IMG/VR virus record: IMGVR_UViG_3300037466_001997
Span: 132,142 to 196,141 of that record
Length of the DNA stretch: 64,000 nt
Source of the DNA: a virus
Lineage: Duplodnaviria; Heunggongvirae; Uroviricota; Caudoviricetes
Reading direction: 5' to 3' (one strand)
Shown here: positions 808 to 55,440 of the stretch, one piece after another
How positions within the stretch are numbered: position 1 is the first letter of the stretch
How the letters are laid out: each line of letters opens with the position of its first letter
Notes under the pieces: model-generated
Told to the model about the DNA's origin: nothing
Database searches by the model: none
What the model saw: the letters and a program-made list of their open reading frames with translations, nothing else
Program-made: the position numbers and the translations under genes

Positions 808-809
808 GC

Positions 810-39222: not shown

Positions 39223-40130
39223 TAGTAACCTTTCGAAATGTCTTCTTTGGTAAGAATAGAAAGTTCCTGAAATTCCAAGTCTAGAGTGACTGAAAGAGGA
39301 ATATTCAACCCAGAATCTGTTCTGATATAGGATTTTGTACCTTCACCATGAGGATTATAAGTAACATTTCTAAGAGCGCATGTCAGGATTTTAAACATGT
39401 ACTTGTCGTCACCGTTGCCAATAGTAATTCGCCAAACATCCGGGTATTTGAACACGTTGTCTTGGAAGGCAGCATCGAATGACGGGTGCATACCGTACTT
39501 GAATTCCTTCACGATTGCCGCAATCGTATCGGCTTCTTGCTGATTTGAAGGAATAAATTTATATGAAAATTGAAATGATCTGAAATCTGGTGAGCGATAC
39601 AAAACCGCCTTATACGGGTTAACCGCAAGGCCGGTCACACGGGAAAACGTGTTGTATACCGTATCGAAATCCTGTGCTTTGTCGAGTGCCCACGCCTGCA
39701 AAAGGTCTTTGCCTTTTTCGGCAGTAAACTCATTGCCAAACTGAACAACAGCGTCCTTCAAGCCGCTGAATCCCTTACCTTTAGCATTATTGTAAATGTT
39801 CGCTGCATCCCCAGACAAGGTGTTACCCAACACACCAAGATTTTCATTTTCCCAGTCGGCGTTGTAACTCACCTGTAGATTTATGGGGGTTGGCAGGGAA
39901 ATGAGAGAACCGGCTTTTGATTCTACCGGCGCTGTTCTGGCATCAGAACGGGAATATTCGTAACGCTGAAAATGGATAATGTGGTTCCATTCAGTCGTTA
40001 GCGTTTTTGGAAACGTAAGCGGCGGCGATGTGCTGGAAGACGAGCTACTGTCAGTAGTTTGACTACCTTCAATTTGTGAAGCGCCAGTATATTTCGTTGT
40101 TGAAGTTACTTTTGTGCCGACCAAGTTCAA
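39222..40130 (-). CDS. gp48: baseplate tail tube cap (gp48-like)
   Basis: NP....LY..P.FRSF.F.YKF.P....EA..I..I...FK....P, YP.V..I, L.L.F.E. Confidence 0.85.
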   Translation of the reverse strand: MNLVGTKVTSTTKYTGASQIEGSQTTDSSSSSSTSPPLTFPKTLTTEWNHIIHFQRYEYSRSDARTAPVESKAGSLISLPTPINLQVSYNADWENENLGVLGNTLSGDAANIYNNAKGKGFSGLKDAVVQFGNEFTAEKGKDLLQAWALDKAQDFDTVYNTFSRVTGLAVNPYKAVLYRSPDFRSFQFSYKFIPSNQQEADTIAAIVKEFKYGMHPSFDAAFQDNVFKYPDVWRITIGNGDDKYMFKILTCALRNVTYNPHGEGTKSYIRTDSGLNIPLSVTLDLEFQELSILTKEDISKGY

Positions 40131-40153
40131 ATGCCTGTATTAATAGCTTGAAT

Positions 40154-40170
40154 CTATTTAGCTATAAATA
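40154..40170. promoter_or_regulatory. divergent late promoters (gp4 on +, gp48 operon on -)
   Basis: TATAAATA on + at 40163-40170; CTAAATA variant on -. Confidence 0.7.
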
Positions 40171-40175
40171 CGGAC

Positions 40176-40676
40176 ATGGACAAATTTCTACTTCCGGAAG
40201 AAGACATAAAGAAACGGCGTAAGGCCAAATCTAAAAGGTCTAAGTATCCAACACCGAGATATTTTATCCCGGTTAATCCCCAGAAATATGTAGGGAATGC
40301 AAACGCCATTGTCGCCCGCTCAAATTTAGAGCGTCGATTCTTCAAAATTTTCGATATGAATAATAATGTATTGCAGTGGGGAAGTGAGGAAATGCATATC
40401 AAGTACCTATCATCCGTTGACGGGAAGGTACATCGCTATTTTCCTGATGTGGTTTTGAAGCTTAAGGACCGGACCGGCAAAACCAAAATTTATGTGATCG
40501 AGATTAAGTGCAAAGCACAGTGCAATCCGCCTAAGAAGCGGAATTCACAAAAATATCTAACGGAAATGGTGACGTATCAGACCAATCAGGACAAATGGCA
40601 AGCAGCAAAAACGTTCTGCGAAAAGCGTGGTCTGATTTTCTATGTTCTAACCGAGGAACATCTAGGCGGATTCTAA
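40176..40676 (+). CDS. gp4: head completion nuclease (T4 gp4-like, TnsA-like PD-(D/E)XK)
   Basis: P.NP.KY.G....I..RS..E..F, W.SEE..I.Y.S..D...HRYFPD, EIK, N..KW.AA. Confidence 0.93.
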   Translation: MDKFLLPEEDIKKRRKAKSKRSKYPTPRYFIPVNPQKYVGNANAIVARSNLERRFFKIFDMNNNVLQWGSEEMHIKYLSSVDGKVHRYFPDVVLKLKDRTGKTKIYVIEIKCKAQCNPPKKRNSQKYLTEMVTYQTNQDKWQAAKTFCEKRGLIFYVLTEEHLGGF

Positions 40677-40850
40677 AAAATTGCTGTCTTTCTGTTGAAG
40701 TTCAGCAATGATGTCCGGATACTTGTTTTCAATGGCGTCACATAATGCCATTTCTACAGTATAATCTTCTTTAGATTTAAACTTGTTACTTAAGTCAACA
40801 CAGGCATTTGTATATACTAAAATTATAGCTTCTTTATGTCTTTCAGTCAT
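40662..40850 (-). CDS. hypothetical protein
   Basis: likely start MTERHK overlapping the upstream stop. Confidence 0.5.
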   Translation of the reverse strand: MTERHKEAIILVYTNACVDLSNKFKSKEDYTVEMALCDAIENKYPDIIAELQQKDSNFLESA

Positions 40851-41106
40851 AGTCCCGTAATATGTAAGCCAAAGGGATTTGGCGAATTTCCATATCAGTA
40901 TATAGACGGGAATGAACAAGTTCTGTAACATTTTTATCTCTGTTACATTGGGGCGATCCCAAATTCTTTTTTTGGATATTTCGTTGATAAAACACTGCGC
41001 CCTTATCAGGATGAACAATCCACCAAAAATCCACCAAAACTTCATAGCCGGTTTTCGGCTTCTGCAATTCCTCTAACGGAACGAAGCGGAGATAATTAGC
41101 GTTCAT
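40843..41106 (-). CDS. hypothetical protein
   Basis: MNANYLRF...SPQCN; packed operon. Confidence 0.6.
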   Translation of the reverse strand: MNANYLRFVPLEELQKPKTGYEVLVDFWWIVHPDKGAVFYQRNIQKKNLGSPQCNRDKNVTELVHSRLYTDMEIRQIPLAYILRDYD

Positions 41107-41401
41107 TTTCCAGATGATCCACAAATGTTTTCGCCGCACGAATCCAGTAGAAACCCGCCATACCGAGTGTGCAGGCAAGGATGTTGGCCAAAGCGTCCAT
41201 CTTGCCTTCCATGACGGCAACATCACGCTTGGTGGTTTTATGGGAACGGATCAGATTTTTGTGTGTCCGGTAGAGGTTCATCAGACGAACCCACACCAGA
41301 GACTGGGTGGAATCGAAATCCCACCCCGCTGGTGCTGGCCATTTTTGCGGCCCTGAAAGGCTGTCGATTGTAATTGTTTGGGTTTCGAATTCAGCGATCA
41401 A
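41096..41401 (-). CDS. hypothetical protein
   Basis: 101-aa ORF with overlapping start/stop. Confidence 0.6.
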   Translation of the reverse strand: MIAEFETQTITIDSLSGPQKWPAPAGWDFDSTQSLVWVRLMNLYRTHKNLIRSHKTTKRDVAVMEGKMDALANILACTLGMAGFYWIRAAKTFVDHLENER

Positions 41402-41628
41402 TGCATCTTCTCCCGATCGATCTTATCGTCCATCCATTCACGCTTGGGATCGAACCCCTTGACACCACACCATTCCTCGAATCGAGCCTGCATGAGCTTG
41501 AATTCGTTGAACTTGATCATGTCTGGCGCTTTCATGTCGAACAGCTTGACAAGACGGTTGCACACCGAACGCAAAGAAAATTCGATTTCCGACAAGCTAG
41601 CAGACGGGTTGTCTTTTTTCTTTGGCAT
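41398..41628 (-). CDS. hypothetical protein
   Basis: 76-aa ORF with GAGGG RBS. Confidence 0.6.
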   Translation of the reverse strand: MPKKKDNPSASLSEIEFSLRSVCNRLVKLFDMKAPDMIKFNEFKLMQARFEEWCGVKGFDPKREWMDDKIDREKMH

Positions 41629-41833
41629 TGTCCCTCACAATGAGTTTCATACGACCGTATATAATGAAATTTTTGGGAGTTTCAAGGTTATTTTCGTTTC
41701 TCAACAAGACCGCTTCCATCGGCGCTTGTTTGGCGAATTCAAGGGTTCTCAATATGATGCGAACCTCTACAAAACTACATATAGCTTCCATTACTACCGT
41801 GCCGGTCTTACGGCATCGAATTTCCCAGAGCAT
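41597..41833 (-). CDS. hypothetical protein
   Basis: likely start MLWEIRC. Confidence 0.45.
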   Translation of the reverse strand: MLWEIRCRKTGTVVMEAICSFVEVRIILRTLEFAKQAPMEAVLLRNENNLETPKNFIIYGRMKLIVRDNAKEKRQPVC

Positions 41834-41853
41834 CGAATTTCCCAGATTTAGGA

Positions 41854-42165
41854 CTACAGAGATTTGAACCGGAAGTAGGAGGCAAAAATTCCCTCGATAT
41901 TGGCTTTCCCTATCGGGTTCTGCGAATGCACGTAATAGCTGAAATTCGCAGGAGTAAGAACATCGTTCTTGATATCCCAATCAATCAGCCACCTTGCCAA
42001 ATCGTGTCCAGTTTTTTTGTTCTCCCCCAAATCGTGATCGAAACTTATATATGATGGAGCGCCTTGCGCTTCTATCACCGCAATGGCATCTTCTACAGAC
42101 CGAACGACAACCCATTCGCCATCGGTAGGGTCACGTTCATCGTCTATGAAAAGTCTGTATGTCAT
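41854..42165 (-). CDS. cyclic-phosphate-processing receiver-domain-like protein
   Basis: LFIDDER.P, ISFDHDLG, TG.D.A.W, VHS.NP.G. Confidence 0.8.
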   Translation of the reverse strand: MTYRLFIDDERDPTDGEWVVVRSVEDAIAVIEAQGAPSYISFDHDLGENKKTGHDLARWLIDWDIKNDVLTPANFSYYVHSQNPIGKANIEGIFASYFRFKSL

Positions 42166-42277
42166 GAGGGAAACTAGCGTGAAAAATGATATGAGTCAAC
42201 CGCACGTGAGGCTATTGACATTATTATACATTTCAGCTATGTAAAGTCAGAGAAAGAATTTGGAAGGAATTTTAGTA

Positions 42278-42493
42278 ATGACTAAATTCAAAGACAACAA
42301 ACAGCGGTACATTTATGATCTTTACACGGTAGAACCGCCGAAGCAGAAGGGAAGCGGGCTTTCCGCTTACTACTTCCGTGCTATCGAGTTTCCGGATAAA
42401 AGGAATCTGGCACCAGAGCGTACATCGCTTGCCTATGCCGCCTATGCGGCAGGCCGGGATTTCGCCAAGCGCCAGAAAGCAGCCAATCAATGA
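42278..42493 (+). CDS. hypothetical protein
   Basis: ATG with AAGGA RBS; upstream TTGACA promoter (~42215). Confidence 0.65.
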   Translation: MTKFKDNKQRYIYDLYTVEPPKQKGSGLSAYYFRAIEFPDKRNLAPERTSLAYAAYAAGRDFAKRQKAANQ

Positions 42494-43281
42494 GTGATTT
42501 GACAGAGTTTCCTGCCATCATCGATCTGTCTGGTTATAACCAGAAAATGAGAAAATCTTTTCTGGAAAAGACCTTCTTTCTGACCAAGATACCGGCGACG
42601 GTCTATCTGGATTATGGTTGTGCTGATGGCAGCATGATCGAATTCATGACCAAGCTGTTTCCGGAATTTCATTATTTTGGCTATGACAATGATCCGAAGA
42701 TGATCGAAATGGCCAAGAATTTGAAAGTTCCAAATGCTGTTTTTTCGGCCAATTTCGATGAATTGGTCACGGCTATGAAAAAGATTGATGGGATTAGAGC
42801 GGTAATTTGTTCGTCGCTCATTCATGAAGTCTATGCCTATCAGGTAGGCGGTTCGGTGGTCCAATTCTGGAACAGAATCAACAACAACTTCAATTATGTC
42901 TGCATTCGAGACATGGCTATGACGAGGGAGGCGGAAGGATATGACGTTTCCTCCCATGACATCTGGGCACTTGCCAATTATTATCTGAAAGAAAAGGATG
43001 ATGTCTATATCCTGAACGATTTTCAGAAGAAATATGGGGAAATCACTAAGTTAAAGCAAATGACCCATTTCCTTCTGAAATATCGGTACAAGAACAATTG
43101 GGAGCGTGAGCTAAACGAAAACTATTTTCCGCTCCCAGTCGAAGAATTGCTGAAACAATTCGCCACCGTCGAATACAAGAATCACTATCTTCTACCGTTC
43201 CTGAAAGAAAAGGTTAAGCAGGATTTTGGCATCGAACTTAAGGAGCCTACGCACATTCAGCTTATTGCCAAGCTACGTTAG
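42490..43281 (+). CDS. class I SAM-dependent methyltransferase
   Basis: YLDYGCADG motif I, YFGYD motif II, SSLIHEVY. Confidence 0.8.
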   Translation: MSDLTEFPAIIDLSGYNQKMRKSFLEKTFFLTKIPATVYLDYGCADGSMIEFMTKLFPEFHYFGYDNDPKMIEMAKNLKVPNAVFSANFDELVTAMKKIDGIRAVICSSLIHEVYAYQVGGSVVQFWNRINNNFNYVCIRDMAMTREAEGYDVSSHDIWALANYYLKEKDDVYILNDFQKKYGEITKLKQMTHFLLKYRYKNNWERELNENYFPLPVEELLKQFATVEYKNHYLLPFLKEKVKQDFGIELKEPTHIQLIAKLR

Positions 43282-43354
43282 GTCCAGTTTGCACAACGGT
43301 TCGATCAGGACTGTTGATGTATAGCGGATAAGTTCAGCCGAATTCGGGACGATC

Positions 43355-43555
43355 TTATAGTTTCTGTATGAGATTACAGAACTTGGCGGCGTCCCGAACT
43401 TGTTCTTCGGTATCAAACCAAATTCGATTTTCTGGAAATCCCCATTGGTATTGAGCCGCCGACCAGTCATCATCGCCAAGGTAGAGATAGACGTTGCCGT
43501 CCGTGTCTTTGGCCAAAACACGGGCACAAAATTTTATAACGTCTTTCATCAGCAT
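43355..43555 (-). CDS. hypothetical protein
   Basis: 66-aa ORF coupled to the upstream gene. Confidence 0.5.
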   Translation of the reverse strand: MLMKDVIKFCARVLAKDTDGNVYLYLGDDDWSAAQYQWGFPENRIWFDTEEQVRDAAKFCNLIQKL

Positions 43556-43776
43556 CTGGCGAGGAAATCCCCCGATGGTCGTTCGGTCTTTTGAACCGAT
43601 TGGTGGATATCGTTCAGCTTCTTTTGCTGGCCTTCCGGGTAGGAAGGATCGATATCGTGGACGAACACCATGTTCAGGTGTGCTTTGATAAGCTTGGTCT
43701 GGCGTTCATTTAGGGTATCGGGTTCCTGTAACTCGAATAGACCCTGTAGCCAGTAACAGAATTCAACTGCCTTCAT
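43549..43776 (-). CDS. conserved phage hypothetical protein (FCYWLQG motif)
   Basis: EFCYWLQGLFEL...IK.HL.MVF.H.ID. Confidence 0.65.
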   Translation of the reverse strand: MKAVEFCYWLQGLFELQEPDTLNERQTKLIKAHLNMVFVHDIDPSYPEGQQKKLNDIHQSVQKTERPSGDFLARC

Positions 43777-43999
43777 TTTCATCTTTCCTATACAATTTGG
43801 AAAAGTACGAACGTTTAGTGAGTGTGTCAATCGAATCGACGCTTACTCGCAACACCAACGGAGCGCCATTTTCTGGAATTTTTCTGCCGCCCGCCAAAAA
43901 CAGATGGTCATACAAAAGTTCAATTTTTTCGTCTGGCGTTAAGTCTTTGATTTGGAATTTAAAATCGGCGTACTTAGGCTCTTTTTTAAGAGGCCACAT
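43763..43999 (-). CDS. hypothetical protein
   Basis: 78-aa ORF with GGAG RBS. Confidence 0.55.
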   Translation of the reverse strand: MWPLKKEPKYADFKFQIKDLTPDEKIELLYDHLFLAGGRKIPENGAPLVLRVSVDSIDTLTKRSYFSKLYRKDENEGS

Positions 44000-44284
44000 G
44001 GGGAAACTCCGTAACCAGAAGGACTATCCAACCCAAGGTAGTCAAAAGTAATATCACAAGCTCTGTCGATGTGCTAAACCGCCTGAAAACGCCTGCATTA
44101 CCAAGGCAAGTGATTATGAAAAGGATGAATGCTAAAATTATTACCACTTTAACCCGATCAGTATTAAGTTGCAAAAAGGATGATACAGGCGATAATGAAA
44201 AAGCAGACGCCAAATCCTGCCATGAAGTATTTTAGATTTGTCTTATACATGTCTCACACTATCAAATGTTAAGCCAAATGTCAA

Positions 44285-44449
44285 CTAGCGCAGAATATAT
44301 TTTGCACAGTTCGATTGATCTTTATTGACATGCCAGTTAGCACATTTCCATTCCTCTGGCGAGAGAAGGAAATAATGACTTCGAACGTAAAGGTTTGAAA
44401 ACGCTGCTAGGGTGAGAACCATCAGCCACGCAATAAGGAAACGGTTCAT
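44285..44449 (-). CDS. small membrane/exported protein (54 aa)
   Basis: MNRFLIAWLMVLTLAAF...C...C; ATGA overlap with the upstream gene. Confidence 0.5.
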   Translation of the reverse strand: MNRFLIAWLMVLTLAAFSNLYVRSHYFLLSPEEWKCANWHVNKDQSNCAKYILR

Positions 44450-44577
44450 CGACCGTCCTTAGCGATATCCTGTTTCAATAGATTTCCAGCGGCTATGAAA
44501 ATTTCCGGGTCGGAATGATGCCAAGAAGCACACCCCGCCAAAACCGAACACACTAGAGCTATGCGAATGAAAGTCAA
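44446..44577 (-). CDS. small lipoprotein (43 aa)
   Basis: TTG start with AAGGA RBS; lipobox LAGC. Confidence 0.55.
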   Translation of the reverse strand: MTFIRIALVCSVLAGCASWHHSDPEIFIAAGNLLKQDIAKDGR

Positions 44578-44600
44578 TAAAATTTCCTTAAAAATAGAGC

Positions 44601-44629
44601 TTGCAAACCAAATACGACTCACATATATT
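44601..44629 (+). promoter_or_regulatory. sigma70-type promoter for the sRNA
   Basis: TTGCAA-N17-TATATT. Confidence 0.7.
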
Positions 44630-44635
44630 GTTTCC

Positions 44636-44795
44636 ATCACAGACGGTCTTCCGTACCCCCTCCTAGCGGTTATGGGATCATCCCCCTTCCCATAACCCCG
44701 TCTGTGAGGGGCGAGATAGTAGGTAAAGTCGGTTGGTAGTGTCCCCTCACAACCGTCTTGACCCATCAGTTCGAATAACTGCTATCTCGCCCCAT
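44636..44795 (+). ncRNA. candidate sRNA with three C-rich anti-Shine-Dalgarno loops
   Basis: Stems 44637-46/44698-707, 44668-77/44688-97, 44708-22/44779-93, 44730-35/44750-55; unpaired CCCCCUCCU, UCCCCCU, UCCCCUC. Confidence 0.7.
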
Positions 44796-45041
44796 TTACC
44801 TTTGCATCAGAACATTTGCGGCGGTTTCATAGCCGAACGCTAGTTCATACTGTTCGTTTGCCTTGGCAATCAGTGCCTTGGCAGAAGCCAGCAAAGGGGC
44901 AGCTTCCTTCATTGCTTCTTCTATGATTGCATCGGCTTCTTGCTGATGCACGTTTGATTCATCCAAATATTTTTGAGCTACAGTCCGCAAATTTTTTGCA
45001 GTGGAGCGGAGCGTTTCCGCTTGAACCTCGAAATCGGTCAT
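44796..45041 (-). CDS. hypothetical coiled-coil protein
   Basis: MTDFEVQ...; ATGA-type overlap with the upstream gene. Confidence 0.6.
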   Translation of the reverse strand: MTDFEVQAETLRSTAKNLRTVAQKYLDESNVHQQEADAIIEEAMKEAAPLLASAKALIAKANEQYELAFGYETAANVLMQR

Positions 45042-45388
45042 TTGTACCAGTACCAGAGAATTACCCAAATGAGCTTGCACACGATGTGCATAGCTTGATC
45101 AATGTTGTAGGCCAGATGTGGCCTGTTTCCAAAAACTTTGTCAGATTTACAGAAGTCGATGACCCAGTGGGCCGAAAATTCCATGATGGCGAACTCGACA
45201 CTGTTCATGGCCAGTCCAACAAATCCGGCATGTACAATGGCGTGTGCTGTCAGGCAATGATACCACGGAATACCCGTGATCGGTGCCAGATGGTTCTTGC
45301 CTTTGGCGAGGAAATCACCCTGTAGAGGATAATCCGCCAGAACATGAAAGAAGACTAGCAGAAGAAACAGGGTGATCGGATAAGGCAT
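45038..45388 (-). CDS. DUF3307-like membrane protein
   Basis: H..ADYPLQ, L.AH..VH, H..ID..K, DQ..H. Confidence 0.82.
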   Translation of the reverse strand: MPYPITLFLLLVFFHVLADYPLQGDFLAKGKNHLAPITGIPWYHCLTAHAIVHAGFVGLAMNSVEFAIMEFSAHWVIDFCKSDKVFGNRPHLAYNIDQAMHIVCKLIWVILWYWYK

Positions 45389-45391
45389 GGG

Positions 45392-45619
45392 TTACCGAAT
45401 CTTTCTATTCCAAATAGACATGTCAGCGATGTAAAAACAAATATGCATTATGGCGGGGATAGGCCATAGTAATGCTAGAAAAAATACAAGCACAACACGG
45501 CCATATGTGTCAGGATCATATATTTGCCACAAAATTATAACACCGATGCCGAAATAGATCAGCCCTAAGCAAATCAGTGCACCAAATAGCGGCATTATAT
45601 TGATGGAAATATCAACCAT
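45392..45619 (-). CDS. small membrane protein
   Basis: two hydrophobic helices, LWP motif. Confidence 0.6.
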   Translation of the reverse strand: MVDISINIMPLFGALICLGLIYFGIGVIILWQIYDPDTYGRVVLVFFLALLWPIPAIMHICFYIADMSIWNRKIR

Positions 45620-45783
45620 TTTCTGGTGATGCCTTCCATCCCACGATGATCACCAGTGGCCATATGCAAGCCCACAGGAACATCGCCAAGAATTCTCTCA
45701 TGTTCTTGACCCTTCCGCCAAAAACCAGCAAGAAAAGTCCAGAGATATAATACGAAACTAAAATCACAATCACTGGGTTTCAC
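45595..45783 (-). CDS. hypothetical protein
   Basis: 62-aa ORF downstream of TTGACA...TATAAT (~45803-45830). Confidence 0.45.
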   Translation of the reverse strand: MKPSDCDFSFVLYLWTFLAGFWRKGQEHERILGDVPVGLHMATGDHRGMEGITRKWLIFPSI

Positions 45784-45826
45784 CTTAGAAAGACTATTTC
45801 ATGATTATACGTTATGATAATGCCTG

Positions 45827-46045
45827 TCAAGTGGCTTCTGACAGCGTGATCGGTCCAAGTTCAATTTCCGGAGTAACACGCTTCATGAGAATAGAAACCA
45901 TAGGTTTTCCCTTTCTCTCCGCATATTCTGTCGAAATGATTTCCCAACCACCTTGGCCGAATTCATTCAGCTTAGTAACATAGGCTTGTGTATCGACTAT
46001 GTTGCCCTTTTCTACTAATTCTACTCTATATTCAAATCGCTGCAT
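45827..46045 (-). CDS. DUF4177-like protein
   Basis: FEY.V...LNE.G..GWE..S...KR. Confidence 0.75.
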   Translation of the reverse strand: MQRFEYRVELVEKGNIVDTQAYVTKLNEFGQGGWEIISTEYAERKGKPMVSILMKRVTPEIELGPITLSEAT

Positions 46046-46077
46046 CTTTTGCTCCTATACTTAATTATATAGGCGTA

Positions 46078-46449
46078 TTACCATTTTGGTGTTGGAAAAG
46101 TATCCTTGATTTCTTGAAGTTCCTTCAACATCGCTTTTCTTTCATCATAGCGACGTTTGTTCTTCTTGAAACCATCCTCGAAATAATCATACCAATACTG
46201 GTATGCGCCTAGCACTTCCCCATCCAAGGTTTTCATGAATTCTTCAATGGTCTTGAAATTCCTTGCAACTTCTTCAATCCGTGCATCTGAATCTGTCGGA
46301 CTGCTTATCAGCTTGTCGTACATAGCTTTCCATGCAAGGTCTTTCTGTGCTTCCGATGGTCGAAGCGGACTTGGCGCAGACTCGAATAACTTTTTAAACC
46401 AGCGCATTACCATGACACACGCACGATGTAGTTGCCGGGAAGAATCCAT
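46078..46449 (-). CDS. hypothetical protein
   Basis: ORF in packed operon; start uncertain. Confidence 0.55.
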   Translation of the reverse strand: MDSSRQLHRACVMVMRWFKKLFESAPSPLRPSEAQKDLAWKAMYDKLISSPTDSDARIEEVARNFKTIEEFMKTLDGEVLGAYQYWYDYFEDGFKKNKRRYDERKAMLKELQEIKDTFPTPKW

Positions 46450-46718
46450 CCCTTATTACACATGTCGTTCAAAACTGTGCTAAGTCCCCAAATCTCGACA
46501 TTACCATTTTTCAAAATTTTCTCGATGTCATCGCCATGGAATTGATCAAGCTCACCGTCTATGGTCATTTCATGGGATGTGTCGTTCGAAGCCTCTAGAT
46601 TGCCTTCGAAGTTGGAAAGATTATATTTTTCAGCGATGAAGTCATTGAGATTGAAGATATCGACGTGCCAAACTGCCTTGGAAGAAAAAATCTGTGGTTG
46701 TTCCAAAATTAAATCCAT
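46407..46718 (-). CDS. conserved phage hypothetical protein
   Basis: SND..H...L..L...G....GNY...VSW ending; promoter upstream. Confidence 0.65.
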   Translation of the reverse strand: MDLILEQPQIFSSKAVWHVDIFNLNDFIAEKYNLSNFEGNLEASNDTSHEMTIDGELDQFHGDDIEKILKNGNVEIWGLSTVLNDMCNKGWILPGNYIVRVSW

Positions 46719-46775
46719 ATGTGAGAAAATTGATAATTCCCCACATATGCCACATGATTGACAGAATGTCAATAC

Positions 46776-47105
46776 CTATTTGTATTTACCCGAATTCATA
46801 ACCGACGCCATCTGGTGCCGCTGCATATCAGCTACCAGTTCTTGCGTCATCGCCTTGGTATAGGCCAGTTGTCCGCCGAAATATACACAGGCATGTTGAA
46901 GGTCAGAGACAACCACCGTTTGTGCAGTGGTGAATGCCTGTCCACCAATGCCACCAAACCCAAGCGCCGTGCTACTCCACGTTTGCGGGAAAGAATACAC
47001 TTCGACATCGTGCAAAGTCGGTCGTCTGGATTTGCCACGATCTTCTATGTTCGGCAAATCTTTGAGAAGTGCCGAATAGATCGACGTGGCGATAACATCA
47101 AGCAT
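46776..47105 (-). CDS. conserved phage hypothetical protein
   Basis: FPQTWSSTALGFGGIGGQAFT.A.T.V motif. Confidence 0.7.
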   Translation of the reverse strand: MLDVIATSIYSALLKDLPNIEDRGKSRRPTLHDVEVYSFPQTWSSTALGFGGIGGQAFTTAQTVVVSDLQHACVYFGGQLAYTKAMTQELVADMQRHQMASVMNSGKYK

Positions 47106-47412
47106 TGTTTTCCTCTGGTGGGAAGAAATCTTCCGGAAGAAGTTCTGTCGAAGCTTCACCAGTCTGTAAAAAACGAACCTTTTGGAAAGTTATCGTATAA
47201 CCATCCACGTCATATTGCATGTAGCTGATTTGTTGCTGTCTTAGTGACTTGGTTTGATCGCCAAGCTTTTGGTCCAACAGCCATTCCCGATAACGGGTGC
47301 CTTCCGAGAACCCCAGTTTCGGAAGCAGGCATAGACCAATGAATATGCCCAATGCTATCATGGCGAGCAGGACGACAACCAAGCATACGATTTCCAGCAC
47401 AAGCCAGCCCAT
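47098..47412 (-). CDS. membrane protein
   Basis: N-terminal TM helix; AAGGA RBS. Confidence 0.6.
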   Translation of the reverse strand: MGWLVLEIVCLVVVLLAMIALGIFIGLCLLPKLGFSEGTRYREWLLDQKLGDQTKSLRQQQISYMQYDVDGYTITFQKVRFLQTGEASTELLPEDFFPPEENNA

Positions 47413-47446
47413 GGCTAATCCTTTGTTGTTGAACCTTCGGTGATGG

Positions 47447-47644
47447 TCACAGGCGAAACCCCCAATAGATAGGCCAGATAAGACCGGCGAAAGCCGAATC
47501 CTTCAAGTTCGTTCGAACGCATTGCCCCAACGGAACTGTTCCACACGAATCATGATGGAACGGAATGGCGAAGTCAAATGTCAACACCGCACCCAAAAGA
47601 TACAGCAAAAACAATCCCTTAAGCGCTATCGACATGGCACACAC
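47447..47644 (-). CDS. small membrane protein
   Basis: hydrophobic, WPIYW ending. Confidence 0.55.
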   Translation of the reverse strand: MCAMSIALKGLFLLYLLGAVLTFDFAIPFHHDSCGTVPLGQCVRTNLKDSAFAGLIWPIYWGFRL

Positions 47645-47835
47645 GCTGTCATATCGTATTCATCGAACACCACTTCTTCGACCGCATAGGGAGGCCCGTC
47701 AAACCAGCTACTGTCAGGACGATTGATCAGTATGGCCACGATAACACGAGTCCCTATGTCTGTGCAGCGCCATCGGCTACGCCAACGGGGTTCAGAAATA
47801 AATTCTTCACCAATTTTGAAATCATCTTTGATCAC
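47626..47835 (-). CDS. hypothetical protein
   Basis: F.IG.EF...WRCTDIGTR....WF.GPPYAV.E.VFDEYD; GTG start inferred. Confidence 0.6.
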   Translation of the reverse strand: MIKDDFKIGEEFISEPRWRSRWRCTDIGTRVIVAILINRPDSSWFDGPPYAVEEVVFDEYDMTACVPCR

Positions 47836-47943
47836 GGAAACCACCCAAACAGATGCCAGAAAACACCATGGCCGGTGATGGCCATGATGGTTGTGTTGGT
47901 CACGACTCCAACTGCCATGCAGAGGAAGAACGATTGCCACATG

Positions 47944-48246
47944 TTATTCAACCGTCGATGGAACCTTGTTGGTATTGGCATCCATGCGGGCTTTGGCGAT
48001 CTTGTCGAAATTGTCTTCGATCAGTTCACCAAGCTTGGTGATGATTTGTGCACGGCGAGTTTGGTTGCCGCCGTCCGTCAGAAGACCATAACGAAAGAAA
48101 TTGTCCAGTTCGCCACGAACCGAACCAATGATGCCTTTCAGGCGATTGGTTCGCTCGATTGCCCTGTCAACGGCTGTAGCATCACTGGCATTCTGATGCA
48201 TAGAGCCATCCTTGGCTTTAAACATCGTGACTGTGACTTGTTCCAT
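47944..48246 (-). CDS. hypothetical protein
   Basis: 100 aa; AAGGG RBS; promoter TTGATT-N17-TATATG upstream. Confidence 0.65.
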   Translation of the reverse strand: MEQVTVTMFKAKDGSMHQNASDATAVDRAIERTNRLKGIIGSVRGELDNFFRYGLLTDGGNQTRRAQIITKLGELIEDNFDKIAKARMDANTNKVPSTVE

Positions 48247-48307
48247 TGGGTTGTGTCCCTTTCTCTACATTGTCACGCATATAGCGTTAACTTATAGGAA
48301 AATCAAG

Positions 48308-48520
48308 CTATTTCTTGATTTCCCCGGATTGAAGTTTGACCAGATATCGGATGGTCTGTGAAAGAGTGGGCCTGAACCCAAACTGTTCCACCAGTTCATC
48401 CGCCATGGAATTGAGTGTTTCCACCAAGTCCCCATCGACTGTGATGTTTTTATATTTCTTTTTGTCGTCATCATCCGATTTGGATTTTTGCATTTTCGAA
48501 ACCTTCGCATCAAAGGACAT
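48308..48520 (-). CDS. small ribbon-helix-helix-like DNA-binding protein
   Basis: KYKNITVD.DL...L....  ...TLSQTIRYL pattern. Confidence 0.55.
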   Translation of the reverse strand: MSFDAKVSKMQKSKSDDDDKKKYKNITVDGDLVETLNSMADELVEQFGFRPTLSQTIRYLVKLQSGEIKK

Positions 48521-48708
48521 CAGTGCACCGTCCCCGTTTCAGCGAACGGGTTCAGGTATTCGCCGGGATACTGGCTTGCCCGCACATACTGGTAAGCCTT
48601 CTTGACGTAATTTTCGAACGGTTCCCGTTCCGTGGGATCACGCCGAAGATATTCCGAGCGGGCAATCAGCGTTGCCCGCTTATCGAGTTCAGTCCAAGCC
48701 GGATTCAT
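48520..48708 (-). CDS. hypothetical protein
   Basis: 62 aa, GAGGG RBS. Confidence 0.6.
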   Translation of the reverse strand: MNPAWTELDKRATLIARSEYLRRDPTEREPFENYVKKAYQYVRASQYPGEYLNPFAETGTVH

Positions 48709-48717
48709 ATTCGTCCC

Positions 48718-49329
48718 TCACAGAAACATCGTGGCATACTTCGAATTGAAGATTGCCCAGTAATTGATTGCGTTGAATTTCAGATTTTTGAGCGCCCGCT
48801 TGGCCTTCGAATATTTGATCTTGGCCTTCACGTCCACATCAAGGTTCTTGGTGTAGGTCCACACCACATTTTTGAAACGGCCCTTTTCGTCCCTTTCATC
48901 GTCCAGAGCCACGCCACACTTGGTAGCCTTCGTCAGCGACCATTCCGAATAGCCGGTTCCATAGGTGCGTTCAGCACCAATCCAGAACACCTTGCCGGTC
49001 TTACCCTTGTCGGCCTTTTTGCCCCGAGCGATCACGACCGTATCGCCCTTTTCCGGAACAGCAAGGTCTTTCAGGAATTTGGCCCAGATGATCTTGCGCA
49101 TGTATTTGTAAGCGTATTCCGCCGCCTTTGCCGTCGATTCCGGCGTGGCATCAACACGGGCCGAACCGCCACCACCGTAGCGAGTCGAATTGTAATAGAA
49201 CTTGGTGAGCGACTTGGTGTCTTCATCCCATGCGATCACATAGAAATCCGAATCGTGGTAACCATTTTCCTCACGTTCCATGATCACGCCGCCGTCGAAC
49301 TTCACTTCACCACCAAGCAGTACCGCCAT
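48718..49329 (-). CDS. basic early protein with KOW-like motif
   Basis: KGDTVVIARGKK.DKGKTGKVFW; AGGAGG RBS; own promoter. Confidence 0.7.
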   Translation of the reverse strand: MAVLLGGEVKFDGGVIMEREENGYHDSDFYVIAWDEDTKSLTKFYYNSTRYGGGGSARVDATPESTAKAAEYAYKYMRKIIWAKFLKDLAVPEKGDTVVIARGKKADKGKTGKVFWIGAERTYGTGYSEWSLTKATKCGVALDDERDEKGRFKNVVWTYTKNLDVDVKAKIKYSKAKRALKNLKFNAINYWAIFNSKYATMFL

Positions 49330-49358
49330 CGAACCCTCCTAAAATCATCTTCAACTCT

Positions 49359-49387
49359 CATATATCGAAACTATTCGAGAATGTCAA
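49359..49387 (-). promoter_or_regulatory. early promoter
   Basis: TTGACA-TTCTCGAATAGTTTCGA-TATATG. Confidence 0.75.
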
Positions 49388-49434
49388 CGGATAATTTGAG
49401 AAAAGTCCAGTGAAAAATGAGAGACAAGAAACGC

Positions 49435-49975
49435 TTGCAAATGGCCGAACAAATGGGTATCCAGACCCAAAATCCATTGTCCGGTGTTCAACGTGTTCTC
49501 CAACCGTCTGCCGGACAACGCCGCCCCTGCGAACGCCCTATGCCCATCCCGGCAAAAAAGTGATCGCAGGGGCGGTTGATTTTTGTGTGGGGTGATCTAG
49601 ATCAAAAGTGTCAAGGCATGGTGCCTTGATTCGTCCAGAGAGCCATTGCATCCCCGTGCAATGGCAAGCCCGTGGGGTATTCATCCACCCCAAGCCAGCG
49701 CCCCACGGGCTACTTTTCTTCTTGACAGAATCATCCTGTGTGGTTAGACAATTTCCTCATAGCCAGAGCTTTCCGGCTATGATCACAAGAACTTAAACCC
49801 CGCTTATCCTGAGTGTTTCTAACGCCGATTGATTCATGCAGGATAAAGCGGGGATTTTTTGTGACTTGATTTTCCCCAGATATGCGCTAAAAAGAATTGT
49901 CCGGTGATCGGATAACCCATGAAGGGTTGGCAAAGGGAGGGTCGCCGGTTTATTTCCTACCCACGGCGACCCTTT
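49435..49975 (+). ncRNA. tandem cluster of ~4 candidate small RNAs (promoter-hairpin-hairpin-U tract units)
   Basis: Promoters TTGCAA-N17-TATCCA (49435), TTGACA-N17-TAGACA (49722), TTGATT (49866); GC-rich stems with long C-rich loops, each followed by a T run; no convincing ORF. Confidence 0.55.
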
Positions 49976-49984
49976 CTCGTATGT

Positions 49985-50017
49985 AAAAACCCCGCCAGCC
50001 TTTCGACCAGCGGGGTT
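49985..50017 (-). terminator. terminator for the minus-strand early operon
   Basis: AACCCCGC/GCGGGGTT hairpin followed by a T run on the - strand. Confidence 0.6.
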
Positions 50018-50069
50018 CTCACCGATCCCATTCAAGGTGGCTCGTTCACCTTGTCAGGATGTTTCGTGT

Positions 50070-50279
50070 CTAATCTTGTGGGTCCAGATTGTCAAGATAA
50101 TTTTTGAGCTTGCTTCGAATGCTATTTGAAAGCAAGGCAAATTCGACCAAGGTTACATCACCACGATTGGCGATTCTCGACAAAATCTGTCCGGCACGGT
50201 TCAGATGATAGTCGGCATCCTTTCGCAACTCTGCGATATCACTGGAAGTCAGTGATGTTCCGGCTGAACCGTAGCTCAT
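50070..50279 (-). CDS. hypothetical protein
   Basis: MSYGSAG start in TAATG overlap. Confidence 0.55.
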   Translation of the reverse strand: MSYGSAGTSLTSSDIAELRKDADYHLNRAGQILSRIANRGDVTLVEFALLSNSIRSKLKNYLDNLDPQD

Positions 50280-50566
50280 TATCGCCTCACAAACACGACA
50301 ACCGCCGAATTCTTCCACATGACCCCTTGGATATCCCACCCAAGGTTGTGAAGCTGCTTGGCGGGAACATTAGCGAAATCCACTTCATCATTGTTGTTGG
50401 CGGTCAGGCAAAGCAGAGCTTGCGACATGTCACCAACAGCGTTGGAATAGTCGAACAGGTCGGTTTCCCAACAGAAGAAAAATGGTTCGTTGGGATTTCC
50501 ACCCACACTTTCGACCAACTTTTTCAAGCGGTCTGAATTCTTTGAATTCTTCGTATACAGTCTCAT
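50279..50566 (-). CDS. hypothetical protein
   Basis: 95 aa; GAGGG RBS; own promoter. Confidence 0.65.
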   Translation of the reverse strand: MRLYTKNSKNSDRLKKLVESVGGNPNEPFFFCWETDLFDYSNAVGDMSQALLCLTANNNDEVDFANVPAKQLHNLGWDIQGVMWKNSAVVVFVRR

Positions 50567-50589
50567 GACACCCTCTCGATTACATTTTC

Positions 50590-50618
50590 TATATAATCGA
50601 GATATTCGAGAATGTCAA
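50590..50618 (-). promoter_or_regulatory. early promoter
   Basis: TTGACA-TTCTCGAATATCTCGAT-TATATA. Confidence 0.75.
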
Positions 50619-50983
50619 GTGTCCATCACGATATCAATTGAAACCAGTTCATAGTCTTCAACCACACCAGCTTCATTGACCTTGCCGATACCTCGAATCG
50701 CCGTTCGCAATCCAACTTTGGCCGCATCCATTTCGTGCACAATGTTTCCAGTCGGTGTGTCGAGCGTTCGCACCGTGCCAATCATCTTACCATCCTCGAA
50801 ACGGATGTTTTCCACGATATGCGAAATTCTGTCTGGGGAAAGGCGCAACTCAACGCCTTGCCCAATCTCGCCATAGACACCGCTTGCCAGTTTTTTCACA
50901 CTGGCTTCCAAATCTTCCTGCTTATAGATTCGGCCTATCCTGTCCACCAGCCCGGCTTCCAAGATCGTGAAATCTTTTTTCAT
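50615..50983 (-). CDS. prohead protease (gp21)-like paralogue, catalytic residues apparently lost
   Basis: GRIY, YGEIGQ (vs GEL.HP), DRISH, G....LDTP.G.I, AIRGIG (vs SSRG.G), DY.L...DIV. Confidence 0.7.
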   Translation of the reverse strand: MKKDFTILEAGLVDRIGRIYKQEDLEASVKKLASGVYGEIGQGVELRLSPDRISHIVENIRFEDGKMIGTVRTLDTPTGNIVHEMDAAKVGLRTAIRGIGKVNEAGVVEDYELVSIDIVMDT

Positions 50984-51299
50984 TAATTTTTTCCATTGCT
51001 TCGTATCGGTCGGCAAGATCGGAAAATTTTGTGATTCCAAACAATGCCTGTGTGTGTTGACGGCTCATGCCTGTGAGACGAACCAAAGGTGTTCTTTCCC
51101 TATCCGTTCGGTCATATCCTTCGGCATATTCCAAGTCCCCATCAGAAGGCCCGGCCCGCAAGATGGAATTCGTCACTCTGGGATCATGCGAATGCATGAA
51201 CTGGGTGACGGCACATCCGAACGAATTTATCGGATTGTATGTGTCATCGCCACGGGAGCGGCAATATTCCAAAAAATCTTTGACTGAAAAATTTTTCAT
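50922..51299 (-). CDS. hypothetical protein
   Basis: 125-aa ORF, FL.....Y......CA..QF. Confidence 0.6.
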   Translation of the reverse strand: MKNFSVKDFLEYCRSRGDDTYNPINSFGCAVTQFMHSHDPRVTNSILRAGPSDGDLEYAEGYDRTDRERTPLVRLTGMSRQHTQALFGITKFSDLADRYEAMEKINEKRFHDLGSRAGGQDRPNL

Positions 51300-51505
51300 T
51301 CGAACACTCCACTATCCAAACCCCAACAACCGACGCTCGAATTGCCTTGGCCATACGCCTTGGTGTTTTCGTCGGCAAGAAGATCACGCCAGTAATGGCA
51401 TTTGGCTGGCGTGTCAAAGACTTCCGGATACACTTTTTGCTGCACATTCCCAACATCAGAACCATGCAGAGTTGTATATACAGATATGATGATTATCCAG
51501 TGCAT
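51296..51505 (-). CDS. small exported protein with Cys pair
   Basis: MHWIIII signal; F.T...C ... C. Confidence 0.55.
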   Translation of the reverse strand: MHWIIIISVYTTLHGSDVGNVQQKVYPEVFDTPAKCHYWRDLLADENTKAYGQGNSSVGCWGLDSGVFE

Positions 51506-51506
51506 C

Positions 51507-51710
51507 CTAGAAGCTCCAATAGTGAGTCGGCGGGCCGCTGTCATGACCATACCAGAAAGCGGTTCCATCACCCTTTATCATACATTTCGTTGGCTTGGGA
51601 TTGTTCTTCGATTTCATGATCAGCGGCTGATCGAACAACGAAAAATTTTCGTCAATCTCTATCCAGTGTGGAACGTGTCTGGGATAGGTCTTGTCACCAA
51701 CTTGATACAT
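51507..51710 (-). CDS. hypothetical protein
   Basis: 67 aa, PTHYW end. Confidence 0.55.
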   Translation of the reverse strand: MYQVGDKTYPRHVPHWIEIDENFSLFDQPLIMKSKNNPKPTKCMIKGDGTAFWYGHDSGPPTHYWSF

Positions 51711-52282
51711 CAGTCTATTACCTCTGGCAAAGAATTGATGAAATCCTTTGTGACGGCATTCAGCGTCTCAATTTTTGTCTCATAGTCACTGAACAGAGTT
51801 TCTTCTGAATATTCAGCGCCTTCCCGAAACCAATAGCCGACAATCGGCAAATCTTTTCGGTTATCAACAACGTCGAAGATCGAATCCGGAAGCCCGACAG
51901 CTTTCAAAGCGTCCATAAACTTTGGTCTGTCCCCACTATTTTCACGCCAAATTTTGTTGAACAAATCGACGTTTTCGCATTGCAGCTTGGTCATGACTCT
52001 GGCTTCAAAGACCGTGCAGCCTTTGATGTTCCTCTCGACACGTAACCAAGGTGCGCCCCGGATTTGGAAACGCATCTTTTCCCATTCCCCGATTTCTTCA
52101 TTCAGGGAATCGATCCATATCCAAAAACATCGCTTGCCGTCGATTGTGCACTCACCATAATATGGTTGCCCATCCCAACTAAACCATTTTGTTAAATTGA
52201 CAGGCGGTTCTATCTGTGGCTGGAAATCGGCCCGTCGCCTGTCCGATAGTTCAACCGAACCAAACATCACGATACCAGCCAC
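51710..52282 (-). CDS. hypothetical protein
   Basis: 190-aa ORF in packed operon. Confidence 0.65.
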   Translation of the reverse strand: MAGIVMFGSVELSDRRRADFQPQIEPPVNLTKWFSWDGQPYYGECTIDGKRCFWIWIDSLNEEIGEWEKMRFQIRGAPWLRVERNIKGCTVFEARVMTKLQCENVDLFNKIWRENSGDRPKFMDALKAVGLPDSIFDVVDNRKDLPIVGYWFREGAEYSEETLFSDYETKIETLNAVTKDFINSLPEVID

Positions 52283-52641
52283 TGTTCCAAGCCACGGGCG
52301 ATCAATTCCAATACCATATCGTTTGTCGTCTTGCCAGAACGAACGGCGGCACCCTGAATCATGGAAAAAATTTCTTTTTCCATAAAAATTGGTTGCGCCA
52401 CACTGGTTTTCTTGGATTCGGTCAAAGCCTTGGTCAAGGCATTGTTCAGCTTGTCGGCAGCGCTATAAAGCGTCTTGGCCTTTTCCTGATTGGTGTTTAT
52501 CTTTCCCGGTTCCGGCGTGAACGGCTTCTTTTCGTCTTCCGCCTTCGCCCGCTTGGCAGCACGAATGGCAGCGGCACGAACCGCTCTTATCTCGTAATAG
52601 GAAAGCGTTACCGGAACTTCAACGTTGGCGATATCACTCAT
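52267..52641 (-). CDS. hypothetical protein, possible C-terminal RHH DNA-binding domain
   Basis: C-terminal I...A.RSGKT.N..V..LI.RGL. Confidence 0.6.
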   Translation of the reverse strand: MSDIANVEVPVTLSYYEIRAVRAAAIRAAKRAKAEDEKKPFTPEPGKINTNQEKAKTLYSAADKLNNALTKALTESKKTSVAQPIFMEKEIFSMIQGAAVRSGKTTNDMVLELIARGLEQWLVS

Positions 52642-52922
52642 TCGACTGCCATCACAGGTTGTTCAAAGATGTTGATGATTTCCGTTTCCGACGCCGGATA
52701 AAATCCATCGCCGGGACAGACATAAAAATTTCCAAACGAGTCGGCCCAAGAAATTTCGCCATTCGGTCCCCTGCCTTCGGCAACCATGGCAATCCGGGCA
52801 GGAACCTTGCCGACACGGACAAAGCCGAATCGTCCAGTGAGCTTGTAGGTGACGCCACGAAACGTGCCCGTCACATAGAATTGCCGCCCCTTGACGGTCA
52901 CGCATTTACCGAAATCGGTCAT
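52638..52922 (-). CDS. hypothetical protein
   Basis: 94 aa; ATGA overlaps. Confidence 0.6.
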   Translation of the reverse strand: MTDFGKCVTVKGRQFYVTGTFRGVTYKLTGRFGFVRVGKVPARIAMVAEGRGPNGEISWADSFGNFYVCPGDGFYPASETEIINIFEQPVMAVE

Positions 52923-53239
52923 GACAATCTCTCTATCGTTTTGTCAATCAAATCCAGCACTTCGGCATGGGTCCGGTTTTTGTCGTCATTCCAAGCTAAT
53001 AGATCGGTTGTCGCCCCAAATTCGCCAAGCCCTAGGGTGTCGCACAAGGCTTTCCGCAACGAACTGTATTGGATAAACCCATCCGAAACATAGGACATGC
53101 CGCCCGCCAGACACCAGCAAGAACCTTCCTCGATATCGCAACGGTCACCAGCGATATCTCTGGCGAATTCGCCCTTCGTCCAGTGCTTTTCGGGAGCGAG
53201 CAATCCACGCAATGTTTTTAGATTATCGATGACGGTCAT
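52919..53239 (-). CDS. CxC/ND/H paralogue 1 (DUF6197-like)
   Basis: HWTKG..ARD, CWCL.G, WND...RTHAEV..LID..I. Confidence 0.75.
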   Translation of the reverse strand: MTVIDNLKTLRGLLAPEKHWTKGEFARDIAGDRCDIEEGSCWCLAGGMSYVSDGFIQYSSLRKALCDTLGLGEFGATTDLLAWNDDKNRTHAEVLDLIDKTIERLS

Positions 53240-53580
53240 TGGCTGGCCTTTGCCTTTTCAATCGCCAAATCCAAAGTTCGAATGATATCGGCATGGGTTC
53301 GGTTGTTGTCGTCATTCCATCCGGGCACGAAACCAGTTCCACCCAAATCCCGAATAGCATCGGACAAATAGTCCTTGGCCTTATACCATGCCGTCACATT
53401 TTCCGAACCAATTGTTGCCCGGTTCAAGGCACCATAGAGACAAAAGCAAGTGGCTTTTGGGTCACTAAATGAACAGACTTCGCCATCCTTGGCGAGACGT
53501 GCATTGTCCCCTTGAATCCAGTTCCTAGGCAAGGCCAAAAGTTTTTTGGTTTCCACCAGTGCATCAGAAGGAGTCATCAC
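53236..53580 (-). CDS. CxC/ND/H paralogue 2 (DUF6197-like)
   Basis: NWIQG..AR, CFCLYGA, WND...RTHADI...LD.AI. Confidence 0.75.
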   Translation of the reverse strand: MMTPSDALVETKKLLALPRNWIQGDNARLAKDGEVCSFSDPKATCFCLYGALNRATIGSENVTAWYKAKDYLSDAIRDLGGTGFVPGWNDDNNRTHADIIRTLDLAIEKAKASQ

Positions 53581-53984
53581 TTTTCCCAGTAAGGTTTGAT
53601 GAAGGAACCGGCGTCTTCCATGGCCCGCATCATGTTGCCCATTTTCTCGATGATCGGTTCGGCTTCATCCTTCATGCGCTTTTCCAAGCGCCGCTGAACT
53701 TCCGCTTCGACATCGGAATATTTTTCCTCGATTTCCTTACAGATGGAAATATAGGTATCCATCATGAATTTGTCAAATTCGGCAAACGACAATTCCACAT
53801 CGTTCACTGTCACCTTGGCAGTAAAGATATAGTTGCCATTATGTCTGTCGATAGTATCGGCAACCTTCTTGACAGTATCCGTATTGGAATGCATCAGCCA
53901 ATGGTTCACCATCTTCTCTGTCGAGTTGATGCCAAAGCGCATTGACAGAATCGAATCCACAATTTCTTTTTTATCTTCGGTCAT
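53577..53984 (-). CDS. hypothetical coiled-coil protein
   Basis: 135 aa, overlapping start/stop. Confidence 0.65.
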   Translation of the reverse strand: MTEDKKEIVDSILSMRFGINSTEKMVNHWLMHSNTDTVKKVADTIDRHNGNYIFTAKVTVNDVELSFAEFDKFMMDTYISICKEIEEKYSDVEAEVQRRLEKRMKDEAEPIIEKMGNMMRAMEDAGSFIKPYWEK

Positions 53985-54328: not shown

Positions 54329-54329
54329 A

Positions 54330-55165: not shown

Positions 55166-55440
55166 GCTCGAACGAATCCTAGTGTTGCGAGAACGTCGGA
55201 TGCCACATTTTCCATTTGGCAGACTGTGACATACATACTCAAGACGTATTCTTTGTTTTGATGATCGAATTCGAAACCATAGTCGTCATTGCCCCAGACA
55301 CAACACCGATAGAAACCATTCGACATTGGACCGATGAACGAGACATGTACGAACGAACGGTTTTGATGCCGAGCATCACTAGCAATCTTGAACTCGCTGT
55401 ACCAACGTTCAAGCGTTGGTTTGAAACAGTCGATTTTCAT
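55162..55440 (-). CDS. hypothetical protein
   Basis: VWGNDD.G.E motif; packed operon. Confidence 0.6.
   Translation of the reverse strand: MKIDCFKPTLERWYSEFKIASDARHQNRSFVHVSFIGPMSNGFYRCCVWGNDDYGFEFDHQNKEYVLSMYVTVCQMENVASDVLATLGFVRA

Follow-up and report, generated by a model that had tools for sequence, protein, structure and literature searches.

The Caulobacter RNA GsrN, in the part of its published description that was accessible (PMC5869019), carries a loop with six tandem C residues that binds G-rich mRNA sites, as compensatory mutants confirm for katG. It is under sigma-T control and activates katG, and the BLASTn search given in that part of the report finds it in Caulobacteraceae only (PMC5869019). 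AbnZ of Caulobacter crescentus, according to the accessible part of its report (PMC11724286), is built of three stable hairpins and represses tamAB by base pairing through their C-rich loops, for which stable tetraloops have been substituted; the same part of the report gives Hfq as not needed and overexpression as toxic (PMC11724286). The cuckoo family (ar14, RSs0680/CcsR, NfeR1) is described, in the part of the source that was accessible, as having two to four adjacent simple hairpins of 24-50 nt with no multiloop, each loop displaying CCUCCUCCC (PMC4615179). Little is known of base-pairing RNAs in strictly lytic phages, and the portion of the literature that surfaced deals mostly with prophage sRNAs and with transcriptome surveys of a few lytic phages. 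Stable structures are also found between the genes of operons, as in the intercistronic hairpins that serve as RNase III sites in T7 early mRNA and in the REP-type stabilisers, while lambda OOP is a short cis-antisense RNA whose template is the other strand of an operon of that phage.

The element analysed here belongs to a 196,141-bp IMG/VR virus genome that is complete per CheckV, the final 64 kb of which make up the analysed stretch (called the window below). The phage is T4-like, as its large genes match T4-type families of the baseplate and tail (wedge subunits, the hub with lysozyme, the tube cap and the sheath stabiliser), and among cultured phages Ochrobactrum phage vB_OspM_OC has the closest wedge protein (43% identity). 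The window encodes a tmRNA (Table 1), upstream of which lies a promoter-like TTGACT-17 nt-TATACA. A degenerate pattern of the tag peptide, with two residues left free, was searched against a species-representative genome collection and matched 56 stretches: 47 named Caulobacter, 6 Caulobacteraceae/Caulobacterales, 1 Brevundimonas and 2 'Proteobacteria bacterium'. Since the tag pattern matches Caulobacter-type genomes, a Caulobacter-like host for the phage is a reasonable inference, with the tag peptide as its single basis; nucleotide similarity between the tmRNA and Caulobacter is confined to ~79% over 61-63 nt around the tag. Contigs of four soil/rhizosphere DNA runs also contained the region; the runs come from four studies, and one may be the source. 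With 0 differing letters, they offered no variation to use. The sequencing runs found to hold the element stretch included no RNA run.

Table 1. Positions of the element, its parts and the neighbouring features, counted from the first letter of the 64-kb window.
Feature	Position	Strand	Description
tmRNA, alphaproteobacterial two-piece	about 393-839		130 bits to RF01849; also found by ARAGORN, at 401-839; tag ANDNVAHEFAVAA
Small predicted lipoprotein gene, downstream of the element	44446-44577	-	begins MTFIRIALVCSVLAGC; start TTG 44577, 6 nt after AAGGAA
Sigma-70-like promoter match	44601-44629	+	TTGCAA (44601-06), 17 nt, TATATT (44624-29); 9/12 match
Domain 1	44637-44707	either	10-bp outer helix TCACAGACGG / CCGTCTGTGA; 21-nt one-sided internal loop
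C-rich patch 1	44656-44664	+	CCCCCTCCT / CCCCCUCCU; internal loop of domain 1; mean unpaired probability 0.97
Inner hairpin of domain 1			10 bp, GGTTATGGGA / TCCCATAACC; 10-nt loop
C-rich patch 2	44678-44687	+	TCATCCCCCT / UCAUCCCCCU; whole hairpin loop of domain 1; unpaired probability 1.00
Alternative pairing	44703-44711		TGTGAGGGG / UGUGAGGGG at the domain junction; perfect 9-nt complement of CCCCTCACA (44743-44751)
Domain 2	44708-44793	either	12-14-bp outer helix (GGGGCGAGATAG / CTATCTCGCCCC = 12 bp)
Interrupted hairpin in domain 2	44722-44764		
C-rich patch 3	44739-44749	+	GTGTCCCCTCA / GUGUCCCCUCA; apical loop of the domain 2 hairpin; unpaired probability 0.72
5-bp hairpin in domain 2	44767-44781		
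AUUUACCUUUGCA	44794-44806	+	after domain 2; at best a weak U-rich tail, not a canonical terminator
81-aa gene, upstream of the element	44796-45041	-	no family match; stop 44798-44796, 2 nt before domain 2
Promoter-like TTGACA ... TATAAT	45801-45830	-	head of the operon running through the element

According to the energy model, 44637-44796 is a non-random, exceptionally stable two-domain fold. The plus strand between 44630 and 44800 reached -72.0 kcal/mol, compared with a mean of -40.5 ± 3.6 for 200 dinucleotide shuffles (z -8.67), none of which was as stable, and the two multi-stem domains of the original prediction are thereby confirmed. Domain 1 contributes -29.6 on the plus strand and -30.6 on the minus strand, with all pairs Watson-Crick, and domain 2 contributes -41.6 and -43.8, respectively. 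In domain 2, a three-way junction with the 5-bp hairpin is possible at equal energy (-72.0 kcal/mol). The minus strand of the element reached -75.2 kcal/mol (z -6.34), again with 0 of 200 shuffles as stable. As nearly all pairs are Watson-Crick, with one G-U among the 48 predicted pairs on the plus strand, the minus strand folds equally well, and therefore the structure alone gives no strand assignment. One A-C mismatch on the plus strand is a G-U pair on the minus strand, where it extends a helix.

The sequence features named in the original prediction, namely the promoter hexamers, the three C-rich stretches and the complementary 9-mers, were all found in place. It had further described the C-rich stretches as three exposed loops; the exposure was borne out by the unpaired probabilities given in Table 1, but patch 1, which reads AGGAGGGGG on the minus strand, lies in an internal and not in a hairpin loop. 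The proposed alternative pairing of 44743-51 with 44703-11 is an exact complement, though it is absent from the minimum-energy fold and would require the breaking of both outer helices. The 58 unpaired bases of the plus strand comprise 23 C, 19 U, 10 A and 6 G. Moreover, the five runs of at least four C within 160 nt are the densest such cluster in the genome, which holds 215 runs (1.1 per kb on average). The element has a G+C content of ~54% with C4-C5 runs, and its C-over-G excess of +17 is not extreme, as 160-nt windows elsewhere in the genome reach +48. Partial repeats are present inside it (CAGACGG / CCGTCT and CCCCTCACA).

The predicted start of transcription from the sigma-70-like promoter match, ~A44636, falls one base ahead of the first helix. 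Promoter matches of the 9/12 grade occur 27 times in 40000-59999 against 27.9 ± 4.4 expected, which is chance frequency. Of 40,000 shuffles of the 59-nt spacer (71% A+T), 9.5% contained any such match and 1.8% contained one that ended 4-9 nt ahead of the helix. For the TTGCAA-N17-TATATT promoter proposed originally, position is thus a stronger point than grade. A terminator scan flagged neither strand of the element; the tails flanking it are AUUUACCUUUG on the plus and UGGAAACAAUAU on the minus strand, with no combination of hairpin and U-run. The possibility that the element is an intrinsic (Rho-independent) terminator was rejected because no U-run directly follows a G+C-rich hairpin. Textbook terminators exist elsewhere in the phage, e.g., at ~49797-49856 on the plus strand. 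Since there is no minus-strand terminator in or after the element, transcription of the operon is expected to continue across it.

The element sits in a 218-nt gap, the sole large one in a packed minus-strand run of small, mostly membrane-protein genes whose other junctions are tight or overlapping. The immediate flanking genes are on the minus strand, which agrees with the orientation opposite to the neighbours described originally. The downstream gene carries a putative LAGC lipobox, read by eye, and PHROGs and Pfam returned nothing for this short form of the lipoprotein. Its frame has no stop as far as 44766, and the records include a 63-aa form starting at ATG 44638. The 106-aa ORF of 44446-44766 has a sole homolog, a 63-aa protein that is 100% identical and comes from one 9,090-bp contig of the same phage. 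By its sequence, the element is apparently non-coding. Recoding from the 81-aa gene into the lipoprotein frame was considered and dropped, as an in-frame TAG lies between them.

The gap belongs to a cassette of 1.9 kb (~43,990-45,860) with genes of 62, 75, 116 (DUF3307), 81, 43 and 54 aa. Two IMG/VR relatives, with a wedge protein 77% identical, are collinear with the window as far as 43,987 and from 45,858 onwards; in both, an unrelated segment of ~2.3 kb, 70% identical between the two, replaces the cassette. Because the two nearest relatives carry unrelated DNA at this place, the element can be assigned to a replaceable or hyperplastic cassette. Two further regions of the window were also recorded. 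For the 103-aa protein encoded at 41854-42165, Pfam gives cREC_REC, the cyclic-phosphate processing receiver domain (E 9e-24), and PHROGs gives phrog_1479. Within 52929-56498, a 65-nt direct repeat is present in five copies with 62-72% identity, which probably represent a paralogous gene family; several tblastx pieces of this repeat region match in both relatives.

Relatives of the element were searched for at several levels. Nothing in 50,697 phage records matched it by blastn, and within its own 196-kb genome the element was found alone, as a single copy, both by BLAST and by a covariance model built from this one sequence (model R1). As R1 is built on a single sequence, distant relatives could be missed. 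The three-loop pattern matched five stretches in IMG/VR, four of them C/T-rich low-complexity DNA and the fifth (L022) folding well. Three exact seeds of 15-16 nt gave 8, 12 and 4 loci there, and R1 matched nothing beyond the seeds. The neighbouring genes were used in the same way: related loci were not found for the 81-aa neighbour and the tail-tube-cap gene, and relatives of the DUF3307 neighbour were present in 15 viral loci and 24 metagenome loci (JGI), at an identity of at most 59%, and in 0 genome contigs. Neither blastn nor R1 detected the element in the DUF3307-relative loci (43 loci, 234,298 bases; best E 6.8), and a crude sliding-energy scan of these loci gave nothing outstanding. 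Likewise, R1 matched nothing in the two nearest relatives, and neither the element nor its neighbours had a counterpart there. R1 gave 0 matches in four named Caulobacter/Brevundimonas genomes and one in 151 Caulobacteraceae genomes, at E 0.059, which is chance level. A repeated regulatory cassette or mobile element (PeSL-like, MITE-like) was rejected, as the element is single-copy and no repeat family in 40000-64000 includes it.

The comparison with Rfam 15 (4227 models) over the whole window returned tmRNA models only at the gathering score. When the E-value was allowed up to 10 for 44300-45100, four weak matches were obtained, the best of them with 18.4 bits against a cut-off of 53.5. The tmRNA was also the sole ARAGORN find in the window, so the element is not tRNA- or tmRNA-like. 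The Infernal search against Rfam that had been suggested as a check thus named no family at the element, at the gathering score or at E up to 10. Membership of the AbcR or cuckoo/ar14 families, which the original prediction had brought in as known C-rich-loop RNAs, is not supported, as no Rfam model matches (theirs included, if the library has them); the cuckoo motif and architecture, moreover, are not shared by the element.

Candidate targets were sought within the phage itself. AAGGA is among the commonest motifs upstream of the phage ORFs, and such sites, of a weak type, dominate; GGAGG lies upstream in 2 of 203 crude ORFs, so that strong GGAGG-type sites are few. When the three patches were paired with the genome of the phage, the best duplex energies were -27.1, -16.4 and -20.0; five shuffled versions of each patch gave a range that includes these values, so that the phage genome holds no target better than those of shuffled loops. 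The two AGGGGA ribosome-binding sites named as possible targets (32636 and 33678) both exist, but each offers a 6-nt match and is one of 18 AGGGGA on its strand. A mimic of the 16S rRNA 3' end, formed by patch 2 and its stem, was rejected as well: the best local alignment with the last 45 nt of a Caulobacter 16S scored 16, a value that 251 of 2000 shuffles and 380 of 4900 phage-genome windows also attained, which is chance level.

Other hairpins with C-rich loops were observed in the window. In a 225-nt spacer between two minus-strand genes, 59711-59751 forms a 9-bp hairpin whose loop begins with CAUCCCC; the spacer overall is weakly structured (z -2.0) and has no match in the two relatives. 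The 9-mer CCGTACCCC, common to the element and this spacer at 59.7 kb, was set aside, as it has three genome copies, one of them inside an ORF, and its sharing is at chance level. CAUCCCC has nine genome copies (seven on the plus and two on the minus strand), three of which, at 44679, 49649 and 59720, begin or abut perfect-hairpin loops, a count made post hoc. The gene-poor region 49420-50080, of ~650 nt, is highly structured (z -5.6 on the plus and -5.4 on the minus strand) and has no Rfam match. It holds canonical terminators on both strands, a possible plus-strand ORF of 48 aa (49417-49563) and two adjacent plus-strand hairpins with C-rich loops, at 49642-49665 (UCCCCG) and 49667-49711 (loop including CAUCCACCCC). 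A piece of its plus-strand terminator, 49815-49859 (45 nt), recurs inverted in a relative (G001) with 87% identity.

Our preferred reading, which we hold tentatively and at somewhat less than an even chance, is that the element is a plus-strand sRNA of ~160 nt that pairs through its three C-rich patches with G-rich, Shine-Dalgarno-like mRNA sites. The promoter at 44601-44629 would fire with a start at ~44636, and the 3' end of the RNA would lie near 44795-44806, set either by a weak terminator or by processing. The C-rich patches may serve as seeds, by analogy with GsrN, AbnZ and the cuckoo RNAs, and the targets would be mRNAs of the host, probably a Caulobacter-like bacterium; infection would alter the translation or the stability of these mRNAs. 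This reading is suggested by the placement of the promoter, the better z on the plus strand, the G-poor and C-rich unpaired bases and the precedent in the probable host lineage. The densest C-run cluster of the genome, the 218-nt gap in a packed operon and the lack of homologs, beyond the 63-aa protein of the phage itself, for the ORF that crosses the element point the same way. It is weakened by the 9/12 grade of the promoter, the lack of a plus-strand terminator, the folding of both strands and the lack of a homolog and of an Rfam match. The duplexes with the phage genome at the level of shuffles, the predominance of AAGGA-type sites and the derivation of the host from the tag peptide only also weaken it. 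The element can be regarded as a sharply defined structured orphan and as a reasonable candidate for an sRNA, with a strand, transcript and function that are predicted.

The same fold could instead work on the minus strand, as part of a polycistronic mRNA whose likely start is the promoter-like site at 45830-45801, where it would be a processing site, a protection of the 3' ends of the upstream genes or a barrier to lipoprotein translation. We consider this rather unlikely, though more probable than the other two alternatives. All neighbouring genes share this orientation, with a TTGACA...TATAAT site at the head of the unit, and no minus-strand terminator would keep transcripts from crossing the element. 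The minus-strand fold of -75.2 kcal/mol (z -6.34) gains a longer helix where a plus-strand A-C mismatch becomes G-U. Domain 2 starts 2 nt past the 81-aa stop codon, while the end of domain 1 coincides with a GUG-AUG that is in frame with the lipoprotein. However, a 160-nt structure of two domains is far larger than the usual intercistronic hairpins, the promoter placement on the plus strand (1.8% of shuffles) would have to be a coincidence, the z is weaker than on the plus strand, and no known cis-regulatory family matches. Direct occlusion of the lipoprotein start is not evident either, because the better-placed start, TTG 44577 with its AAGGAA, lies 59 nt past the structure in unstructured, AT-rich DNA. 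In a variant of the minus-strand explanation, a stable RNA would be excised, and its G-rich loops AGGAGGGGG, AGGGGGAUGA and UGAGGGGAC could sponge host sRNAs of the GsrN/AbnZ type; two of the minus-strand loops hold G5, and the GsrN loop, in the accessible part of its description, holds C6.

A plus-strand transcript might also act in cis, the complementary operon mRNA being its target, with a loop-loop contact followed by a duplex that is cut or that blocks the lipoprotein and the later genes, as is familiar from lambda OOP and the plasmid copy-control RNAs. This draws on the same promoter evidence as the trans-acting sRNA. Moreover, the Watson-Crick pairs (one G-U of 48) give matching hairpins with complementary loops, as expected if both strands are used, and the RNA would cover AGGAGGGGG and reach AUG 44638, the start chosen by the gene caller for the 63-aa form. 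Yet the likelier start, TTG 44577 with AAGGAA, is outside the antisense RNA and under its promoter, and the three similar C-rich patches would go unexplained, which makes regulation in cis distinctly improbable in our view. Of similarly low probability is an origin at the DNA level, in which the element would be a set of young palindromes (an inverted duplication, a mobile or recombination scar) or a protein or replication site on DNA, with no function as RNA. Helices of 10, 10 and 12 bp with no mismatch and almost no G-U are typical of DNA palindromes and unusual for an old structured RNA; the cassette setting with unrelated DNA in the relatives, the single copy with no homolog and the partial internal repeats (CAGACGG / CCGTCT and CCCCTCACA) fit as well. 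A scar would not be expected, however, to have nested helices, C runs clustered in the unpaired parts and an adjacent promoter-like site, and the flanking direct repeats or extra copies that a mobile element would leave are lacking. The identity of the region in contigs of four runs means that it is stably kept, although zero divergence says little.

The element may allow a bolder interpretation, which we rate as doubtful: a virulent T4-like phage of a Caulobacter-like soil bacterium would carry a multi-seed RNA that hijacks the host's code of C-rich loops and G tracts, the plus strand mimicking host sRNAs such as AbnZ or GsrN and shutting down envelope or stress genes, or the G-rich loops of the minus strand sponging these sRNAs. 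If this were true, the phage would possess an RNA-level device for host takeover with no sequence relatives, and its use of the C-rich pairing device of host regulators would make takeover at the RNA level clear to see and open to testing.

The comparison with the known systems is therefore made at the level of design. To our knowledge, no intercistronic hairpin or OOP-type RNA has three similar exposed C-rich (or G-rich) patches, and intercistronic hairpins and cis-antisense RNAs are usually single and 30-80 nt long, whereas the element has 160 nt and two domains. The use of C-rich loops as a pairing device, on which the original prediction had built, is proven in the likely host lineage by GsrN and AbnZ, as far as the accessible parts of their reports go. 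With GsrN, as described there, the element would share the exposed C-rich loop suited to G-rich tracts in mRNA leaders, its own patches being predicted as exposed; GsrN, however, has one such loop with C6, the element has three patches with C4-C5, and homology was not found. AbnZ, in the accessible part of its description, resembles the element in displaying C-rich loops on several very stable hairpins and in coming from the likely host lineage, but one patch of the element is in an internal loop, its helices are nested and branched, and R1 detected no similarity. The cuckoo RNAs, in the description accessible, have in common with it a modular build, a C-rich anti-Shine-Dalgarno-like motif repeated two to four times in unpaired regions and the alphaproteobacterial setting. 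In contrast to them, the helices of the element are nested within two closed domains, with a possible three-way junction, and CCUCCUCCC is absent from 44601-44800, the nearest sequence being CCCCCUCCU in the internal loop. On the best reading, by analogy, the element would work most like the AbnZ, GsrN and cuckoo RNAs while being a member of none of these families, and it would fall among the base-pairing RNAs with C-rich seeds or among the intercistronic structures rather than represent a new kind.
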